Source: an uncultured Azospirillaceae bacterium (GTDB lineage: Bacteria; Pseudomonadota; Alphaproteobacteria; RF32; CAG-239). From it: 36,171 bases of DNA. Location of the stretch: NCBI GenBank assembly GCA_964370255.1, contig CAYJIO010000001.1:1-36171 (forward strand). Direction: 5' to 3'. A model generated the notes under the pieces. It was not told the DNA's origin, searched no databases, and saw only the letters and a program-made list of their open reading frames with translations. A program made the position numbers and the translations under genes. Positions within the stretch are counted from its first letter, which is position 1. Every line of letters starts with the position of its first letter. Below are positions 4,087 through 35,412 of this stretch, piece after piece.

Positions 4087-7509
<3,423 letters not shown>

Positions 7510-7563
7510 TTGTTAGAGGTTATATAATATATTTATTAAAAATCAATAAAAAAGGAATGTGTT

Positions 7564-8061
7564 ATGTATAAATATTTGGTATTGTTTTTGCTTATCTCTT
7601 TTGGCGCTATGGCAAGGAATGCTGAGATGGTTGCAGAATATGGAAATTGGAAACTTTATTATTATAATGATTATAATGATAAGGTTTGTTATATTCGCTC
7701 AACTCCTGTGTTGGATGAGGGGAAATATAATCAAAGAGGTGATATATATATGACAATTACCTCAAGGCCAAACATTGACAGTTTTGATGTTGTGGGATTT
7801 AATGCTGGCTATGTTTTTGAAAAAGGGGTTGATGCAACAATAAAAGTTGGTTCTAGCACAATAAATAAGTTGTTTGCAAAAGATGATATGCTTTGGGCTG
7901 TTAATTCTGATGCGGATAAAGAAATTGTTGATTTGATGCAAAAAGGGCAAAGAATGATTGTTGAGGGCGCTAATGATGATGGTATAAAAACAGTAGACAC
8001 ATATTCTCTTAATGGTTTTAATGAGGCATATAGAGCAATGAGCGCTAGATGTGAGAGATAG
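7564..8061 (+). CDS. Invasion-associated locus B (IalB)-family periplasmic protein
   Basis: 165 aa. Signal peptide MYKYLVLFLLISFGAMA. The size and Cys pattern (C near the N-terminus, C at the C-terminus) with W..Y core are typical of the IalB family. RBS AAGGA lies upstream. Confidence 0.6.
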   Translation: MYKYLVLFLLISFGAMARNAEMVAEYGNWKLYYYNDYNDKVCYIRSTPVLDEGKYNQRGDIYMTITSRPNIDSFDVVGFNAGYVFEKGVDATIKVGSSTINKLFAKDDMLWAVNSDADKEIVDLMQKGQRMIVEGANDDGIKTVDTYSLNGFNEAYRAMSARCER

Positions 8062-8151
8062 AGCTTTCGTTACTACACAAAGAGAAAAGCCAAATTCAAA
8101 ATATAAAATTCATCACAAAAATGATTTCATTAACCGTGAAAATTTCTAAAT

Positions 8152-20904: not shown

Positions 20905-21005
20905 ACTCATATAATTGACTACTACTTGAAGGTTTACTCCTCGTGTACGTTTTGTGTGTACACGTCGTCGCAAACCTTCTGCGTATTAGCCTAATTCTAT
21001 GAGTT
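20904..21005. repeat. Palindromic MITE-like repeat, copy A1
   Basis: Terminal inverted repeats AACTCATATAATT / AATTCTATGAGTT. Core CCTCGTGTAC-GTTTTGTG-TGTACACGTCGTCG. The left end overlaps the stop codon of the upstream gene. Confidence 0.7.
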
Positions 21006-21200
21006 TTAGCATGGACTACTACTTGAAGGTTTACTCCTCTTAAAAGGTAATTTATGGGCATCTTCTTGCAACTTGCCAGCCTCGAGTGCTATTTTGCACA
21101 CGTCGGCTGTCAACTCACGTCGCATGTGCCTCATAACTCACCTTTTATTTATAGGCTAGGCATCTTCTTGCAACTTGCCTAGAGTTTTAGCTTGGACTAT
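21006..21200. repeat. Composite or nested copies of the same repeat family (A2 and partial copies)
   Basis: An exact 26 nt copy of the A1 arm (GACTACTACTTGAAGGTTTACTCCTC) sits at 21014-21039. An imperfect palindrome spans 21041-21147 (TAAAAGGT...ACCTTTTA). A 21 nt direct repeat GGCATCTTCTTGCAACTTGCC occurs at 21057 and 21159. GAGTTTTAGC(A/T)TGGACTA occurs at 21001 and 21182. Confidence 0.65.
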
Positions 21201-28907: not shown

Positions 28908-29453
28908 ATGAACACATTTTATAAAGTATCAAATTATCTTAATTCACCAGAGGTTTTGAGCCTTGTTTTTGACAACAGGTTTATGCTGATATTGTTTGTG
29001 ATATTGCTTACAAAACTTAAGAACTCAACGTATAGAAGTATGTATATGAGTGCTATTATAAATATTCCGGGGACTATTTTGCATGAGGCAATGCACTATG
29101 TTGTTGGAGGGCTCTTAAACGCGCAGCCGGTCAATTTTTCTGTGTGGCCAAAAAAAGATAATATGGGCAATTATGTTATGGGATCTGTTGGGTTTAAGAA
29201 TATTACTTTTTATAATGCTTTGCCTGCAACTATGGCTCCTTTGTTGTTGTTAATTATGGGCTTTTATATAAACAGATATTTGCTGCCTTTGATTGAGCCT
29301 TCTTTTGTTTCTTATATCTTATATATTTTGTTGCAGACAATTATTATAGAAAATGCTATCCCATCGCGAGTGGATTTTGCTGTTGCCTTTAGGCACAAGC
29401 TTGGGCTTTTGATGTATATTATCTTATTTGCTCTTGGATTTGGGTTGATATAA
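28908..29453 (+). CDS. Membrane protein with HExxH motif (putative intramembrane zinc metallopeptidase)
   Basis: 181 aa with 4-5 hydrophobic segments. HEAMH follows the first TM segment. The stop overlaps the recJ start. Confidence 0.5.
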   Translation: MNTFYKVSNYLNSPEVLSLVFDNRFMLILFVILLTKLKNSTYRSMYMSAIINIPGTILHEAMHYVVGGLLNAQPVNFSVWPKKDNMGNYVMGSVGFKNITFYNALPATMAPLLLLIMGFYINRYLLPLIEPSFVSYILYILLQTIIIENAIPSRVDFAVAFRHKLGLLMYIILFALGFGLI

Positions 29454-31162
29454 TGAAAACAATAAACGGATGTATAATAAAAGAAACCACATATGATGAG
29501 CGCTTGGCAGAAAACATTGCCCAAAAGCACAACATCTCTCATATAATATCTAAAATATTGGTGCAAAAAGGCGTTGGTCTTGATGATGCTCCTCTTTTCT
29601 TAGAGCCCAAAATTGCAAACCTTATGCCAAACCCCAATTCCTTAATGGATATGGATAAAGCCTCAGAACGTATTGCAAAAGCCATAGAGAATAAAGAGAC
29701 AATTGGTATTATTGGTGATTATGATGTTGATGGTGCAACCTCAACTGCATTATTAAAAATATTTTTTAGGCAGCATAATATTGAGCCTTTGGTTCATATT
29801 CCTGACCGTGAAGAAGGCTATGGACCTAGCAAACTTGCGGTTGATAAGTTTGTGGCAGGAGGGGCAAGCCTTATTATTACCGTTGACTGTGGAACAACTG
29901 CGTTTGTGACCTTGGAATATGCTTATGAAAAAGGCATTGAGTTGATTGTGCTTGATCACCACGCAGCAGAGGTCACGTTGCCAAAGTCTTATGCTGTGGT
30001 TAATCCAAAACGCATGGATGATGAAAGCGGGCTTGAATATTTGGCTGCTTGTGGTGTTGTGTTTATGGCAATTGTTGCAACAAATGCAAGACTTGAGCAT
30101 AAGGTCAACTTGTTAGACTTATTAGACATTGTGGCTCTTGGCACGGTGTGTGATGTTGTGCCTTTGGTTGGGCTCAATCGTGCGTTTGTAAAACAAGGCA
30201 TTAAAGTTATGAGCCAATATAAAAACGTTGGAATTTCAGCTCTAAGAGATATTGCAGGAGTTACAGACACACTGTCTGCGTATCATCTTGGCTTTGTGTT
30301 TGGACCAAGAATTAATGCAACAGGCAGAGTAGGTGATGCAAAATATGGCAATCAGCTTTTAAGCGCTCAAGATATTGTTGAGGCAAAAGTTTTGGCAGAA
30401 AAACTTCAAGACTGTAACACTGAGCGCAAAGAAATTGAACAATATGCGTTTATTCAGGCAATCGAAAAACTTGAGGGAGAGCCTCAGGATGTGCCATTTG
30501 CCTTTGTATATGCTGATGATTGGCACCAAGGTGTTATTGGAATTGTTGCTGGCAAATTAAAAGAACGCTACAACCAACCTGCGTTTGTTATGACGCTTGA
30601 AGCCGGAGTTTATAAAGGCTCTGCACGCTCAATTGCTGGGCTTGACTTGGGGGCATTAATAATTCAGGCCAAAGAAAAAGACTTGCTTGTATCTGGTGGT
30701 GGGCACATTATGGCAGCAGGATTTTCTGTATCTCCTGATAAACTAGAAGAATTTAAGGCATTTATTGCTGAATATGTAATAGAGCATCTTGGCAAAGATG
30801 TGATTGAGCCAATCATAGAAGTTTCTTCAATGCTTTCTGTTGGCGGTGTTAATATAAATCTTGCCAACGAGCTTGAGAACCTAGAGCCTTATGGTGCATC
30901 TAACTCAGAGCCAAAGTTTTTGATTAAAAACGCGCAAATAACAGGGGCTGCAATTGTGGGGCAGGGGCATATAAAATGCTTTATATCTTCATCATCTGGC
31001 GGCAACATCAAAGCAATTGCCTTTAAGATGGCAGACACAGAATTAGGCAGACAAATGCTTGCAAATTCAAGAGGAGTGTTTGACCTCGTTGGAGTGGTTA
31101 GAAAAAACACCTGGCAGGGAAGGGTTAGTGTTCAATTCATAATCGAAGACGCTTTAAATTAA
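29453..31162 (+). CDS. recJ: Single-stranded-DNA-specific exonuclease RecJ
   Basis: 569 aa. DHH motifs GDYDVDGATS, TVDCG and LDHH, plus DHHA1 GGGHIMAAG. Confidence 0.95.
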   Translation: MKTINGCIIKETTYDERLAENIAQKHNISHIISKILVQKGVGLDDAPLFLEPKIANLMPNPNSLMDMDKASERIAKAIENKETIGIIGDYDVDGATSTALLKIFFRQHNIEPLVHIPDREEGYGPSKLAVDKFVAGGASLIITVDCGTTAFVTLEYAYEKGIELIVLDHHAAEVTLPKSYAVVNPKRMDDESGLEYLAACGVVFMAIVATNARLEHKVNLLDLLDIVALGTVCDVVPLVGLNRAFVKQGIKVMSQYKNVGISALRDIAGVTDTLSAYHLGFVFGPRINATGRVGDAKYGNQLLSAQDIVEAKVLAEKLQDCNTERKEIEQYAFIQAIEKLEGEPQDVPFAFVYADDWHQGVIGIVAGKLKERYNQPAFVMTLEAGVYKGSARSIAGLDLGALIIQAKEKDLLVSGGGHIMAAGFSVSPDKLEEFKAFIAEYVIEHLGKDVIEPIIEVSSMLSVGGVNINLANELENLEPYGASNSEPKFLIKNAQITGAAIVGQGHIKCFISSSSGGNIKAIAFKMADTELGRQMLANSRGVFDLVGVVRKNTWQGRVSVQFIIEDALN

Positions 31163-31262
31163 TTTTAATGGAATTCTGCTTGTTTATTATTTCCTCGTGT
31201 GCGTTTTTGTGCACACGTCGTCAATAACAAACTTCGCATAATTCTCATTAAAATCAATTTAA
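31154..31262. repeat. Palindromic MITE-like repeat, copy B1
   Basis: The 17 nt terminal inverted repeats TTAAATTAATTTTAATG / CATTAAAATCAATTTAA match at 16 of 17 positions. Core CCTCGTGTGC-GTTTTTGT-GCACACGTCGTC is the same as in cluster A. The left end overlaps the last codons and stop of recJ. Confidence 0.7.
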
Positions 31263-31275
31263 TATAAAACTATTA

Positions 31276-31345
31276 TATGGATAACTACTTGAAAGTTTTT
31301 TCCTCGTGTACCCTTTAGTTGTAAACGCAGTCAAAGTTTTGCTTT
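31276..31345. repeat. Degenerate copy (B2) of the same repeat family
   Basis: ATGGATAACTACTTGAAAGTTTTTTCCTCGTGTAC...GTAAACGCAGTCAAAG parallels 21011-21039 and 20917-20975. Confidence 0.55.
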
Positions 31346-31433: not shown

Positions 31434-31461
31434 ATTTTCTAGTTTTCTAGAAAACTAGAAA
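31434..31461. repeat. 28 nt exact repeat containing a 26 bp perfect palindrome (copy 2)
   Basis: Identical 28-mer located 74 bp downstream of copy 1. Here the palindrome extends to 28 bp (31435-31462). Confidence 0.9.
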
Positions 31462-31492: not shown

Positions 31493-31520
31493 TAGACATT
31501 TATTTATATTGTGATATATT
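31493..31520 (+). promoter_or_regulatory. Putative promoter with extended -10 for the HNH-like gene
   Basis: TAGACA, 16 nt spacer, TGATATATT. It is flanked by the inverted hexamers TAGACA (31493) and TGTCTA (31522). Confidence 0.4.
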
Positions 31521-31549
31521 TTGTCTATTGAAGTTTAAGAGAGGGGGCG

Positions 31550-32701
31550 ATGGCAAAAAGGAATCGCGCATCAAATTTTAAGAATAACAAAAAAACAGAC
31601 AGATTGCCTGCTAATTTGGACGGCTATTTAGCAAAACAATATAAGCGTTATATAGAGGGCACCTCATCTCAGAAAGCAGCAGCGAAATCAGCAATATATA
31701 AGGTGCTTCAAAGTGAGGGTTTTTATCTTTCAGATACAGAATATGCACCTCTAAAAAAAGCAGAGAAAAAACTTATTCGAATAGAGTTTTATGGCAGTGT
31801 TGATAAAGTAAGAAATCAATCTGGTTTTTCAAAAATATATAAAGACCATTTGTCAAGTCAAAATAAAGAAAACTATCCAAAAGAAGCCTATAATGACCTT
31901 TGTGATTGGCCAATATGGCAGGTTTGTGAGCAATCAAAAAAATTAAGTGCTCTTAAGCCAAAAATTATTTCTTATTTGCAACAAAATGCAATCTCTCCTG
32001 AAATATTGCCTTCGCTTAATTCAACAGATTTTCAAGACATTTTATATAACACCTTCAAAGTAGGTGAGAGTGGTAAAAAGGCATATTTGTTTGAAAGCCA
32101 AAGATCAAGATTTGTAAAATATTTGGCAAATAATTATCAAAAAGATTTGAAGAATATGTTTTTTCAAAAAGGAATGAGCAAGGACAAAGTAAATGAGCTT
32201 ATTTCAAAAATGAAGGAATATGGAAGCACAGAGATGCACTACATTGATCCAAATGGTCAAATTATTCAAGACAAAGAGATTATTTTAACGATACATCACA
32301 AAAAACCTGTTGCATCATATAGTTCAAAAGAAAAAAATATTTTTTCTGCAAATGACTTTAAAAATCTTTGTTTAGTTATAAACAATCATGATTTTCCTTT
32401 GCATGATATTTTTCATATTTTTAATGTTAAAAAGAGAGAAAATGATCTAGCCGAGCAAATCATAAAAAAACTTTTAGTGCCAAAAGATAGTGTTGTAATG
32501 CTTGGGATGGCAAGCTCAATGCAAATTAAAGAAAGTTTTGATGCAGAAATGACAGATGAAGTTGAGACTGACTTGAAAGCCTGCAAAAATAAGTCAAGAC
32601 ACAAAGCAGAAGAACAAAAACCTACTACTCCAAGGCAAAGAAGAAGATTAAACTCACCTCTAAAAAGAGCAAATAACTCACACAAAAGAGGTGGACGATA
32701 A
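31550..32701 (+). CDS. Basic protein with C-terminal-half HNH/EndoVII-fold (AHH-like) nuclease motif; candidate toxin/effector
   Basis: 383 aa. GAGGGGG RBS. The motif EMHYIDPNG..LTIHHKKPV-x13-NDFKNLCLVINNHDFPLHDIFH matches the HH..P / N / NLxL..H...H pattern. Both termini are Arg/Lys-rich, and there is no signal peptide. Confidence 0.55.
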   Translation: MAKRNRASNFKNNKKTDRLPANLDGYLAKQYKRYIEGTSSQKAAAKSAIYKVLQSEGFYLSDTEYAPLKKAEKKLIRIEFYGSVDKVRNQSGFSKIYKDHLSSQNKENYPKEAYNDLCDWPIWQVCEQSKKLSALKPKIISYLQQNAISPEILPSLNSTDFQDILYNTFKVGESGKKAYLFESQRSRFVKYLANNYQKDLKNMFFQKGMSKDKVNELISKMKEYGSTEMHYIDPNGQIIQDKEIILTIHHKKPVASYSSKEKNIFSANDFKNLCLVINNHDFPLHDIFHIFNVKKRENDLAEQIIKKLLVPKDSVVMLGMASSMQIKESFDAEMTDEVETDLKACKNKSRHKAEEQKPTTPRQRRRLNSPLKRANNSHKRGGR

Positions 32702-33102
32702 TGATTAGAGCAATTGAAAAATTGAGGCAAAATAAATTTGAGGCGTCTGGAGAGCAGTTAGAAACTGCAGATATTATTATAACCCAAAAAGAGTTAAAGC
32801 AGAAAAAAGGTGTTGTTTTACCAGAGGAGGTCATAAATTTTTTGCATCACTTTAATGGGTTTAGCTATGATGGTGGGCAAATATATGGCATTTATAATCC
32901 AGATGTTTTAACAAATAATATAATAACAGAAAATCAAAAAAATAATATCAAAAACTGTATAGTTTTAGGGCATAATGAGTTTGATTATCTTGTTTATAAC
33001 AATATCTTAAACAATTACCAAATTTTGGATAAAGAAGACTTTGAAATATTAGAAGAATATCTTGACTTTGATGATGGATTTTCTTATATAATAAAAATAT
33101 GA
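32701..33102 (+). CDS. SUKH (SMI1/KNR4)-like protein; candidate cognate immunity protein
   Basis: 133 aa, acidic. LPEEVINFLHHFNGFSYDGGQIYGI matches the SUKH-1 signature LP.dy..FL...NG. It shows the TAATG overlap with the upstream gene and an ATGA overlap with the downstream gene. Confidence 0.5.
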   Translation: MIRAIEKLRQNKFEASGEQLETADIIITQKELKQKKGVVLPEEVINFLHHFNGFSYDGGQIYGIYNPDVLTNNIITENQKNNIKNCIVLGHNEFDYLVYNNILNNYQILDKEDFEILEEYLDFDDGFSYIIKI

Positions 33103-34037
33103 CAAATATTTATAAAGCAAATCAAGAAAATATTATAAACGCCTCTAATATCATAAAAAAAGGTGGTCTTGTTGCAATGCCTACTGAAACCGTTTATGGG
33201 CTTGGGGCAAATGCGTTTGATGCAAAAGCGGTTGCAAAAATTTATGAGGCAAAAAAAAGGCCTTCGTTTAATCCGCTTATTTCTCATATTGCAGAAATTG
33301 ATATGATAAAAGAAATTGGTATTGCCGATGAGCGTTTTTATGCAATGGCCTCACATTTTTGGCCAGCGCCACTTACTATGGTTATAAAAAGAAGCAACCC
33401 AAAGCTTGATTTGGCTTGTGCTGGGCTTAATACAACAACGGTTAGAATGCCAAATCATAGTGTTGCCTTAGAGCTGATTAAAAAATCAGGGGTGCCAATT
33501 GTTGCTCCGTCTGCAAACTTGTCTACAACCATTAGCCCAACAACAGCTGAACATGTTTATGAAAGCTTGGGCAAAAGTGTTGATATGATATTAGATGGCG
33601 GTGCCTGTCAAGTTGGAGTTGAGTCAACAATTATAGATATTTCAACCAATGATGTTGTGCTTTTAAGGGCTGGGGGCTTGGAGATTGAAAAAATTGAAGA
33701 GTTTTTGAACCAAAAAATTATTACTGCAAAAAATAATCCAAACGCGCCAAAGTCTCCTGGGCAAATGCTAAAACATTATGCACCAAACAAAAAATTGCGC
33801 ATTAATGTTGAAAAACCTGAGGAAGATGAGTTTTTTATTGGGTTTGGGGATATGAGTTGCAACTTAAATCTTAGCAGAACAAAAGACTTGTTAGAAGCAT
33901 CGGCAAATTTGTTTGCATTTTTAAGATTGGCTGACAAAAATATAAAGTATAATAAAATTGCAATAGCGCCAATTCCTTTTAATGGATTGGGGTTGGCAAT
34001 AAATGATAGATTAGAAAGGGCAAAAAACAATGGTTAA
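33099..34037 (+). CDS. tsaC: L-threonylcarbamoyladenylate synthase (Sua5/TsaC, long form)
   Basis: 312 aa. YrdC domain with VAMPTETVYGLGANA, KGRP-like KKRPSFNPL and APSAN, plus a Sua5 C-terminal domain. Confidence 0.9.
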   Translation: MTNIYKANQENIINASNIIKKGGLVAMPTETVYGLGANAFDAKAVAKIYEAKKRPSFNPLISHIAEIDMIKEIGIADERFYAMASHFWPAPLTMVIKRSNPKLDLACAGLNTTTVRMPNHSVALELIKKSGVPIVAPSANLSTTISPTTAEHVYESLGKSVDMILDGGACQVGVESTIIDISTNDVVLLRAGGLEIEKIEEFLNQKIITAKNNPNAPKSPGQMLKHYAPNKKLRINVEKPEEDEFFIGFGDMSCNLNLSRTKDLLEASANLFAFLRLADKNIKYNKIAIAPIPFNGLGLAINDRLERAKNNG

Positions 34038-34980
34038 AGTAATGGTTTGTGGTGGTGCTGGTTATATTGGTTCTCATGTGGCAAAAGAGCTTTTGGATAA
34101 TGGAATGGAAGTTTTGGTTTTTGATAATCTTTCAACCGGAGATGAAATTAATTTGTTTGAAAAAGCAGAATTTATAAAAGGTGATATCAGAAATTTTGAA
34201 GAAATATCAATGGCTATGAAAGGGATTGACGCAGTTGTGTTCTTGGCAGGCAAAAAAGCCGTTGGAGAAAGTATGGAAAAGCCAGAAATATATACCGATG
34301 GCAATATCAGAGGGGCTATTAATGTGGTTGATGCAATGCTTGAAAATGGGGTTAAAAACATTGTATTCTCATCATCTGCTGCGGTTTATGGAATGCCAGA
34401 ATATAACCCAATTGATGAGATGCATCCTACAAAGCCAATAAACTATTATGGTTGGACAAAGAAGTTTTTTGAAGAATATTTGGATTGGTATTCAATTATA
34501 AAAGGCATTAACTATATGTCTTTGCGTTATTTTAATGCAGTTGGCTATGATGCAACAGGCGCAATTAAAGGAAGAGAAAAAAATCCACAAAATTTGTTGC
34601 CAATTATTATTGAGGTGTTAAACGGGCAAAGAGAAAAATTATCTGTATTTGGCAATGATTATGATACTCCTGACGGAACTTGTGTGCGTGATTATATTCA
34701 TGTCTCTGATTTGGCCTCAGCCCATTTCTTGGCAATTAAATATCTTATGAATGGTGGCGACTCTGGTGTTGTCAATCTTGGTACAGAAAAAGGCACATCA
34801 GTAAAAGAAATTGTTGAAGCAACAGAAAACGTGGCTGGCAAAAAAGTTAAAATGGAATATGCGGGCAGAAGAGCTGGAGACCCTGCATCTTTGAGTGCAT
34901 CTGCAAAAAAAGCAAAGGCAGCTTTGGGCTGGCAGCCAAGATATATGAATATTGAAGATATTATAAAAACAAATTTGTAG
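34030..34980 (+). CDS. galE: UDP-glucose 4-epimerase
   Basis: 316 aa. Rossmann motif GGAGYIGSH, SSSAAVYG, catalytic YGWTK (YxxxK), and RDYIHV. Confidence 0.9.
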   Translation: MVKVMVCGGAGYIGSHVAKELLDNGMEVLVFDNLSTGDEINLFEKAEFIKGDIRNFEEISMAMKGIDAVVFLAGKKAVGESMEKPEIYTDGNIRGAINVVDAMLENGVKNIVFSSSAAVYGMPEYNPIDEMHPTKPINYYGWTKKFFEEYLDWYSIIKGINYMSLRYFNAVGYDATGAIKGREKNPQNLLPIIIEVLNGQREKLSVFGNDYDTPDGTCVRDYIHVSDLASAHFLAIKYLMNGGDSGVVNLGTEKGTSVKEIVEATENVAGKKVKMEYAGRRAGDPASLSASAKKAKAALGWQPRYMNIEDIIKTNL

Positions 34981-35058: not shown

Positions 35059-35412
35059 ATGTCAAAAAAATGTAGTTTAACAAACAAAGGTATTCAGTCT
35101 GGTAACAACGTGAGCCATGCAAACAACAGAACTCGTCGTCGTTTTTTGCCAAATTTGCAAGTAATCTCTTTGTTTTCTGAAGCTTTGAACAAAGTATTCA
35201 AATTGAAAATTTGCTCAAACACTTTACGTTCTATTGAGCACAAAGGTGGTTTTGATTCTTATTTAGAAAATACAAAAGATGCTGAGTTAACAACAGAAGC
35301 ACAAAAAATTAAAAAAGCAGTTAAAAAGAAAACTGCAGGCACAAAAGTTGCTCCAGCGAAAAAAGCAGTAAAAAGAACTCCTGCAAGAAAAGCTAAAAAA
35401 GCAGCAAAATAA
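35059..35412 (+). CDS. rpmB: 50S ribosomal protein L28 with Lys/Ala-rich C-terminal extension
   Basis: 117 aa. The L28 core is C.LT.K....GNNVSHANN.T.RRFLPNL. The last ~33 aa are KKAVKKKTAGTKVAPAKKAVKRTPARKAKKAAK. Confidence 0.9.
   Translation: MSKKCSLTNKGIQSGNNVSHANNRTRRRFLPNLQVISLFSEALNKVFKLKICSNTLRSIEHKGGFDSYLENTKDAELTTEAQKIKKAVKKKTAGTKVAPAKKAVKRTPARKAKKAAK

Follow-up and report, generated by a model that had tools for sequence, protein, structure and literature searches.

What is a predicted nuclease gene, chained by overlapping stop and start codons to a predicted inhibitor gene, doing in an operon of housekeeping genes? The question is raised by contig CAYJIO010000001.1 of an uncultured Azospirillaceae bacterium (assembly GCA_964370255.1), which we analysed over its complete length of 36,171 nucleotides (nt; GC content ~35%), referred to here as the window. 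Downstream of recJ it carries a gene for a 383-amino-acid (aa) protein, followed by a gene for a 133-aa protein and by sua5. A preliminary description of this DNA read the two proteins as a candidate HNH nuclease toxin and its SUKH immunity protein, partners that recur in polymorphic toxin systems, and suggested that the module had been acquired. The elements it pointed out are confirmed: both open reading frames, the basic tail, the HH..N..NLxL..H-x3-H motif, the two overlaps (TAATG and ATGA) and, upstream, the repeats and palindromes. We conclude that the two genes probably form a lineage-specific, vertically inherited nuclease/inhibitor pair, in which a divergent HNH domain, joined to a new helical N-terminal domain and a basic tail, is partnered by a SUKH protein of the YrhA family. 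The results below show homology for both partners, conservation of the predicted catalytic residues, operon coupling, deep synteny and purifying selection.

The putative nuclease family and its SUKH partner

The 383-aa protein contains the motif ..LTIHHKKPV (249-254), followed after 13 aa by NDFKNLCLVINNHDFPLHDIFH (268-289). A word-index search of 5.8 billion proteins returned a single relative of it, P0002, from an alphaproteobacterial metagenome-assembled genome (39% identity), and no relative of the 133-aa partner. Using a two-sequence profile made from the 383-aa protein and P0002, we collected the family by an exhaustive hidden Markov model (HMM) search of 1.84 billion proteins, which yielded 103 representatives at E<=1e-3 and 55 at E<=1e-10, most of them 360-620 aa long. 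The family amounts to ~100 clusters at 50% identity and has no match in any family library searched. Among the aligned representatives, H249 is kept in 89/92, H250 in 92/92, N268 in 89/93, H285 in 83/86 and H289 in 81/85. The motif therefore goes beyond chance, its HH, N and H-x3-H residues being retained in 94-100% of the aligned family sequences.

The 133-aa protein, which contains LPEEVINFLHHFNGFSYDGG and is acidic (22 D+E against 12 K+R), matches NCBIfam NF038335 'YrhA family' with 59 bits at a cutoff of 55 (E=4.8e-16) over residues 2-132 of 133. All seven orthologues analysed match the same NCBIfam family (7/7, best E=2.8e-18), and all are net acidic. Furthermore, the YrhA-family protein of an IncHI2 plasmid aligns with the SUKH family of the window over 90 columns (E=2.4e-4), and sub-threshold matches to Pfam SUKH profiles recur consistently across three orthologues. 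This profile evidence places the partner in the YrhA family of the SUKH superfamily, which bears out the original assignment; in published work, SUKH proteins serve as the immunity partners of HNH toxins (PMC3113570). It matches no DNA-binding family, and a search of PDB sequences with the SUKH profile returned nothing. In E. coli K-12, where yrhA is disrupted by IS1, the first YrhA fragment aligned only weakly with the SUKH alignment (E=0.0019), and the NCBIfam match was relied on instead.

As yrhA adjoins yhhZ in E. coli, the YrhA match of the partner gave the lead for comparing the 383-aa family with YhhZ. Aligned with hhalign, the family profile matched YhhZ with a probability of 94.9% (E=4.8e-8), the HNH protein of the IncHI2 plasmid with E=1.1e-5, and a two-sequence YhhZ/IncHI2 profile with a probability of 96.4% (E=1.2e-9). 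In the first of these alignments, the YhhZ segment LLRMRK-G..NVHHKLSLDDGG..TNDFENLVLIENEPYH is set against the family pattern MKxxG..VHHKxAVxDA..vNxFxNLCL..PyH. When the YhhZ segment was shuffled 100 times as a control, E never fell below 0.042 and the score did not exceed 18.5, compared to 57.2 for the real segment. The IncHI2 protein passes Pfam HNH (PF01844) with 27.1 bits against a gathering score of 21.4, exactly at the aligned residues, and YhhZ itself consists in Pfam of a T6SS_HCP domain and a weak HNH match. Homology to the enterobacterial proteins is confined to the final ~80-120 residues ahead of the tail, and the ~190 residues at the N-terminus are family-specific.

By transitive profile homology, then, the nuclease domain is a predicted HNH-superfamily member of the type found at the C-terminus of YhhZ, not of the AHH or LHH type. 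The HNH assignment made initially is thus supported by this indirect route (E=1.2e-9), but by no direct Pfam match, and the further proposal that AHH/LHH toxins are the closest in style has to be given up. The 383-aa protein matches neither AHH (PF14412) nor LHH, LHH was matched by 0/51 aligned family members, and the only hints among these 51 in Pfam or PHROGs were one weak AHH match (E=0.0044) and one weak Col-Pyo_DNase match.

An AlphaFold2 (AF2) model computed from a multiple sequence alignment of 51 sequences reached a mean predicted local distance difference test score (pLDDT) of 86.7 and a predicted template modelling score (pTM) of 0.82, with low confidence at residues 1-20 and ~335-383. 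A model from two sequences (pLDDT 41.5) was unusable. Around the motif, the model places a strand (246-250) that ends in HH, a short helix (264-268), a second strand (273-278; LCLVIN) and a helix (284-289) that carries H285 and H289. At the level of secondary structure, this strand-strand-helix arrangement fits a beta-beta-alpha-metal finger with a putative metal site. The domain at residues 21-208, for which neither the members nor the consensus have a Pfam match and which matches no solved or viral fold, is modelled together with the HNH domain as one confident body. Full-length proteins with this N-terminal domain carry the HNH-like domain or its truncated form; short fragments consisting of the N-terminal domain are uninformative in this respect.

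Two variations within the family were seen. A subfamily of 570-640 aa proteins (P0045, P0052, P0057, P0067, P0069, P0083, P0084, P0092 and P0093) keeps VHHD..AI.DAG..VN and is missing the H-x3-H half of the motif, and may be inactivated or remodelled. In members such as P0004-P0007, P0010, P0013 and P0018, ~50 aa (..IYVIDHDKGVKLLNKYKQKGILP..) are inserted between the MKxxG helix and the HNH strand; the 383-aa protein does not have this insertion.

Operon coupling, synteny and divergence of the pair

The junction of the two genes reads cgaTAATGatt, a 1-nt overlap at 32701, and is followed by a 4-nt overlap (ATGA, 33099-33102) between the SUKH gene and sua5 and by an 8-nt overlap between sua5 and a galE-like gene. 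The last codons of the 383-aa gene, AAA AGA GGT GGA CGA (K-R-G-G-R), hold a Shine-Dalgarno (SD) sequence, GAGGTGG (32688-32694), 7-13 nt before the ATG of the SUKH gene. The toxin-then-immunity order and the translational chaining to sua5 and the galE-like gene were, in this respect, described correctly from the outset.

We scored the trio of family gene, SUKH gene and sua5 with purpose-built HMMs and found it, with overlapping stop and start codons, in ~17 loci from at least 7 lineages, mostly from the human gut (the window, L004, L006-L010, L012-L020, L024 and L025). It is present wherever a locus extends far enough, except in L001 and L005. L001, which encodes a 39%-identical orthologue, has the order TPR-methyltransferase, 182-aa gene, recJ, family gene, SUKH, with a spacer of 53 nt between recJ and the family gene and no sua5 downstream. 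L004 reads pepA(-), divergent paralogue, family gene, SUKH, sua5, and L005 has the same order without SUKH. In L006 the trio is preceded by recJ 2.2 kb upstream, and L007-L025 are 19 metagenome loci, mostly from the human gut. Overall, pepA lies upstream in eight loci, and GC content ranges from 35-52% among the trio loci and from 30-54% over all family loci.

The two partners change considerably faster than their neighbours. Between the same pairs of genomes, identity is 60-74% for Sua5 and 56-76% for RecJ, compared to 32-61% for SUKH and 24-42% for the family protein; between genera, the pair diverges 3-4 times faster than the housekeeping genes beside it. Within a species, the ratio of nonsynonymous to synonymous substitution rates (dN/dS; L017 compared with L019 and L020) is 0.11-0.12 for the family gene, 0.19-0.24 for SUKH and 0.07 for sua5. 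It rises to 0.35-0.40 for L007 compared with L008 or L009, with the differences falling mostly in the disordered N- and C-terminal parts. A mirror-tree correlation of nuclease and SUKH distances (partial r 0.66) was not used, as one close pair dominates it and its points are non-independent.

No homologue of the family was found among 72,556 plasmids, 50,697 phages or viral contigs. The human-gut member MBP3418224.1, in turn, was seen on 723 contigs, its SUKH neighbour being named under Candidatus Scatocola. The pair is therefore a clade-wide, essentially single-locus and vertically inherited module that evolves fast under purifying selection. Because it holds the same chromosomal position, coupled to sua5, across the clade, it is old and vertical and does not represent an insertion, contrary to the idea of an acquisition bounded by repeats that resemble miniature inverted-repeat transposable elements (MITE). 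Conserved synteny of single-copy genes under purifying selection, to which only the divergent tandem paralogue of two lineages is an exception, is the pattern that the preliminary description itself had named as refuting its reading; it speaks against a mobile polymorphic toxin, though not against nuclease/inhibitor biochemistry.

The divergent tandem paralogues (L004:4665-6014, 449 aa; L005:5254-6711, 485 aa) lie directly 5' of the main copy and carry the motif HHI.HVSNA..N..NL.LV..H..IH, with homology only from ~Y114 on (hhalign probability 99.4-99.5%). In L005, the paralogue is followed at 6708-8071 by a family gene with intact HH/N/H/H and then, after 65 nt, by sua5.

Proposed mechanism and alternative explanations

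In the mechanism we propose for a vertically inherited nuclease/inhibitor pair, one promoter would transcribe the nuclease, SUKH, sua5 and galE-like genes. Synthesis of the inhibitor would be coupled to that of the nuclease, given the overlap of stop and start codons and the position of the ribosome-binding site of the inhibitor inside the last nuclease codons. As homology to immunity proteins suggests, the inhibitor would bind the nuclease and hold it inactive in the producing cell, and the free enzyme would cut DNA through the conserved HH/N/H-x3-H metal site.

Several results weigh against this proposal. The 383-aa protein has no match in Pfam, NCBIfam, PHROGs or PADLOC and gives noise only against PDB sequences; the 51 aligned family members have no convincing match in Pfam or PHROGs, the family consensus matches no library family and the family profile no PDB sequence. 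In Pfam and NCBIfam, the N-terminal 230 aa show no trafficking domain or signal (Hcp, PAAR/RHS, LXG, TPS, signal peptide), in agreement with the preliminary description, which had recognised neither a motif nor a signal peptide or delivery domain there, and no secretion-system gene lies nearby. A Foldseek search of the whole AF2 model against PDB and BFVD gave nothing at E<0.9 (best E about 1), probably because the His-Me core is too small for a whole-model search. As Foldseek gave no neighbour, the overall fold of the 383-aa protein, as modelled, is new relative to PDB and BFVD. On the side of the partner, all Pfam SUKH matches stay below their gathering scores (SMI1_KNR4 20.9 compared to 25.4, SUKH_5 18.6-25.4 compared to 27, SUKH_6 ~18-20 compared to 27). 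In L005, tblastn detects no SUKH gene within 6 kb of the intact family gene, which is awkward for an obligatorily lethal toxin. Finally, an alignment to the colicin E9 DNase fell into the expected register at E=0.029 (score 19.7), which is noise relative to the shuffles, and was not counted as evidence.

For the role of the pair, we tentatively rank a toxin that still serves competition, exported by an unrecognised route, as somewhat likelier than an internal cellular role; the former is a possibility short of being probable, the latter a weaker one. Speaking for conflict are the kinship with effector/immunity pairs whose N-terminal parts differ, the fast evolution of both partners and the tandem paralogues in two lineages. 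More specific scenarios are doubtful: the ancestor of a clade of gut Alphaproteobacteria may have captured an interbacterial-type HNH/SUKH cassette once, fused it to the new domain and domesticated it for an internal cellular function, as a core component expressed constitutively with the sua5 operon, or the N-terminal domain may represent an unrecognised export route for a core-genome toxin.

The alternative that survives best, although we consider it rather unlikely, is domestication, in which a former toxin/immunity cassette now provides a core cellular nuclease with a regulatory SUKH protein, co-expressed with sua5 and acting in repair, recombination or controlled DNA degradation. It would account for the fixed position between pepA or recJ and sua5 across loci that span 35-52% GC and 60-74% Sua5 identity, for a within-species dN/dS of the family gene (0.11-0.12) near that of sua5 (0.07), and for a C-terminal domain that is not polymorphic, has no plasmid or phage copies and is accompanied by no trafficking domain. 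The modelling of both domains as one body (pTM 0.82), the tolerance of SUKH loss in L005 and a basic disordered tail compatible with DNA binding point the same way. However, divergence between genera proceeds 3-4 times faster in both partners than in the genes beside them, a behaviour of conflict genes, their nearest homologues are effector/immunity-type pairs, there is no link to a known repair pathway, and the sua5 linkage is broken in L001.

Distinctly less likely is an addiction or abortive-infection module, with a stable nuclease and a labile SUKH inhibitor, that would release the enzyme upon a shutdown of translation or transcription, by a phage for instance. Tight translational coupling and a chromosomal nuclease with an inhibitor and no export signal are in keeping with such a module. 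PADLOC gave no match, however, and the gene order, the lack of a DNA-binding antitoxin and the 383-aa size of the toxin are unlike type II toxin-antitoxin systems, which have an upstream antitoxin and a small toxin. Defence and toxin-antitoxin modules are also mobile and patchily distributed as a rule, in contrast to the fixed, syntenic position of this pair.

We regard it as slightly more improbable still that the protein is a substrate of a VirB/VirD4-type type IV secretion system (T4SS), as had been suggested from its positively charged C-terminus, which reads ..TPRQRRRLNSPLKRANNSHKRGGR. The tails of the family are indeed basic, with a median net charge of +4.5 over the last 30 aa compared to ~+0.75 per 30 aa over the whole protein, and with at least +4 in 56/92. 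The toxin domain is internal to the C-terminal tail, as in T4SS effectors, and in IncHI2 plasmids the homologous HNH/YrhA cassette is located within the conjugative transfer region. At the extreme C-terminus, G[RK] is enriched 11-fold in the last 8 residues (p=4e-29) and the final residue is R or K in 50/92. Yet this terminal G-R/R-G coincides with the SD sequence of the SUKH gene: in 6/8 coupled loci, an SD-like GAGG/GGAG (AGAGG or GAGGAG) lies 10-15 nt 5' of the SUKH start and is read as R-G, R-R or G-x-K-R peptides, and in L005, which has no SUKH gene, the SD-like sequence is missing from the end of the family gene. The terminal motif is thus largely the SD footprint of the overlapped gene, and therefore a coding constraint and not necessarily an export signal. 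The remainder of the tail is hypervariable and of low complexity, and the nearest orthologue, P0002, is without it, having a 15-aa tail of net charge +1 and a net charge of 0 over its last 30 aa. The IncHI2 and YhhZ homologues do not have a basic tail either, and no T4SS gene is found in the 36-kb contig or in the related loci examined (flanks of up to 13 kb). The tail may aid DNA binding. An amphipathic helix for membrane targeting was considered and rejected, with hydrophobic clusters in 50/92 tails and 181/379 linker windows and hence no enrichment.

A recently acquired mobile polymorphic-toxin cassette is very improbable: repeats and palindromes do lie directly upstream and the order is toxin then immunity gene, but the orthologous pair occupies the same position in L001 behind a spacer of only 53 nt, the trio with sua5 is kept in at least 7 lineages, GC at 31-33 kb (0.30-0.33) stays within the range of the contig, plasmid and phage homologues are lacking in the databases searched, and the same repeat recurs at ~20.9-21.0 kb beside unrelated genes.

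Related systems and features of the locus

Among the closest known systems is the YhhZ/YrhA pair of E. coli, with a homologous nuclease domain (VHHK..DDGG/..N.F.NL.L...PYH), a partner of the same NCBIfam family and yrhA directly downstream of yhhZ with a 4-nt overlap. Unlike the protein of the window, which has an unrelated N-terminal domain and a basic tail, YhhZ carries an N-terminal Hcp domain for delivery by a type VI secretion system (T6SS). It is also missing the second His of H-x3-H, and its locus is a variable island, whereas the window pair is fixed in a core operon. YhhZ is annotated as 'putative endonuclease' and resembles in its architecture the Hcp-ET1 HNH-DNase class of T6SS effectors; HNH-DNases fused to Hcp serve as T6SS effectors and break down the DNA of the target (PMC6099711). 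In K-12 (L026, 3581863-3584309) yhhZ is intact and the downstream yrhA is split by IS1E.

A tblastn search with the YhhZ segment returned 460 plasmid records, of which 434 are conjugative. The one inspected is a large conjugative IncHI2 plasmid (NZ_CP098384.1) that encodes, in its transfer region, a 353-aa 'HNH endonuclease' followed by a 'YrhA family protein' (WP_000902297.1/WP_000654195.1). Here the HNH motif is homologous and passes Pfam HNH, and the YrhA-family gene is next to it. In contrast to the window pair, this one is plasmid-borne in a conjugative transfer region, without a basic tail, and has another N-terminal region, common to the middle part of YhhZ. The pair (L027, 111450-113027) lies between a lytic transglycosylase gene and a TraG_N gene.

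Polymorphic toxins of the AHH/LHH/HNH-SUKH kind (Zhang et al. 2011, 2012) likewise have an HNH-superfamily nuclease gene followed by a SUKH gene, with both partners evolving rapidly. They differ in their trafficking domains, alternative C-terminal toxin domains, orphan cassettes and mobile context, and their AHH/LHH profiles do not fit the family. Colicin E9 DNase and Im9 share the logic of an HH, N, H-x3-H motif and of an acidic, co-transcribed immunity protein; in sequence, the similarity does not rise above noise, Im9 lies outside the SUKH superfamily, and the system is plasmid-borne with receptor and translocation domains. Tox-REHH/RehhI (bioRxiv 10.64898/2026.09.22.753552) is another HNH enzyme too divergent for Pfam and global fold searches, with acidic immunity proteins that include SUKH; its residues and spacing (R46, H52, E53, H102, H121) are different, known secretion systems deliver it, and it belongs to another family.

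Compared with these systems, the pair combines a known type of nuclease and immunity protein with a new architecture and an unusual core-operon setting. In the uncatalogued family, a new domain is fused to an HNH nuclease that escapes standard profile and fold searches, and the locus indicates that an effector/immunity-type nuclease/SUKH pair can persist in an operon as the stable, vertically inherited companion of an essential gene and need not always be a mobile, polymorphic weapon, which matters for the automated calling of 'toxin-immunity' loci. It also illustrates how an apparently conserved motif at the C-terminus can in reality be the ribosome-binding site of the overlapping gene that follows. 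If the reading by capture or by a new export route were true, a toxin/immunity pair would have been kept at one locus under purifying selection through family- to order-level divergence.

The coordinates of the locus are collected in Table 1. The best promoter match lies ~30 nt 5' of the start codon of the 383-aa gene, between the second palindrome and the SD-like AGAGGGGG. The two palindromes occur nowhere else in the window (0 expected from 100 shuffles) and are not present in the orthologous locus L001; they may be operator sites. The dispersed repeats, reminiscent of MITEs or of repetitive extragenic palindromic (REP) sequences, include copies at ~20.9-21.0 kb that adjoin genes unrelated to the pair. 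As the corresponding spacer in L001 measures only 53 nt, they represent dispersed intergenic elements that fill one spacer in a lineage-specific manner and do not mark an insertion.

Table 1. Features of the nuclease/SUKH locus and its surroundings; positions refer to the window unless given in aa.
Feature	Position	Strand	Basis or remark
~60-nt REP/MITE-like repeat with GTGTAC..GTACAC hairpin, 4 copies	~20905-20975, 21002-21040, 31170-31235, 31268-31335	.	intergenic, dispersed
recJ, upstream neighbour	29453..31162	+	Pfam DHH, DHHA1, RecJ_OB; also neighbour in L001 (39%-identical orthologous locus)
Two identical perfect 26-nt palindromes, TTTCTAGTTTTCTAGAAAACTAGAAA	31362-31387, 31436-31461	.	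74 nt apart, just 5' of the promoter-like site
Best sigma-70-like promoter match, TAGACA-16-TATATT with upstream TG	31493..31520	+	consensus match only
SD-like AGAGGGGG before the 383-aa gene	31540-31547	+	sequence reading
383-aa family protein gene	31550..32701	+	open reading frame list
Disordered basic N-terminus of the 383-aa protein	aa 1-20	+	low AF2 confidence
Family-specific N-terminal domain, mostly helical	31610..32173 (aa 21-208)	+	near-invariant R77, G82, Y114, W123, F132, D160
Predicted HNH/His-Me-like nuclease domain	32174..32539 (aa 209-330)	+	hhalign, residue conservation
Predicted catalytic constellation H249, H250, N268/N272, H285, H289	32294-32416	+	alignment, AF2 secondary structure
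Disordered, strongly basic C-terminal tail	32540..32698 (aa 331-383)	+	pLDDT <50
133-aa acidic SUKH-superfamily (YrhA family) protein gene, predicted cognate inhibitor/immunity protein	32701..33102	+	NCBIfam NF038335
sua5/tsaC (threonylcarbamoyl-AMP synthase)	33099..34037	+	Pfam Sua5_yciO_yrdC 1.5e-55, Sua5_C 1.5e-18
NAD-dependent epimerase (GalE-like), final overlapped gene of the chain	34030..34980	+	Pfam Epimerase 4.2e-52

Ordinary chromosomal genes elsewhere in the window include ftsH, an EPSP_synthase-family gene, a ccrM-like methylase gene, lepA, metG, trkH and rpmB. The gene at 28908-29453, whose stop codon overlaps the start of recJ, encodes a predicted membrane protein of 181 aa that contains an HEAMH (HExxH-like) motif; the 182-aa gene of L001 occupies the matching position. 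The ribosomal protein L28 gene at 35059-35412 encodes 117 aa with a Lys/Ala/Pro-rich, histone-H1-like C-terminal extension, and the CcrM-like N6/N4 DNA methylase at 5159-6250 has a C-terminal RAMA domain, which is consistent with an alphaproteobacterial origin.

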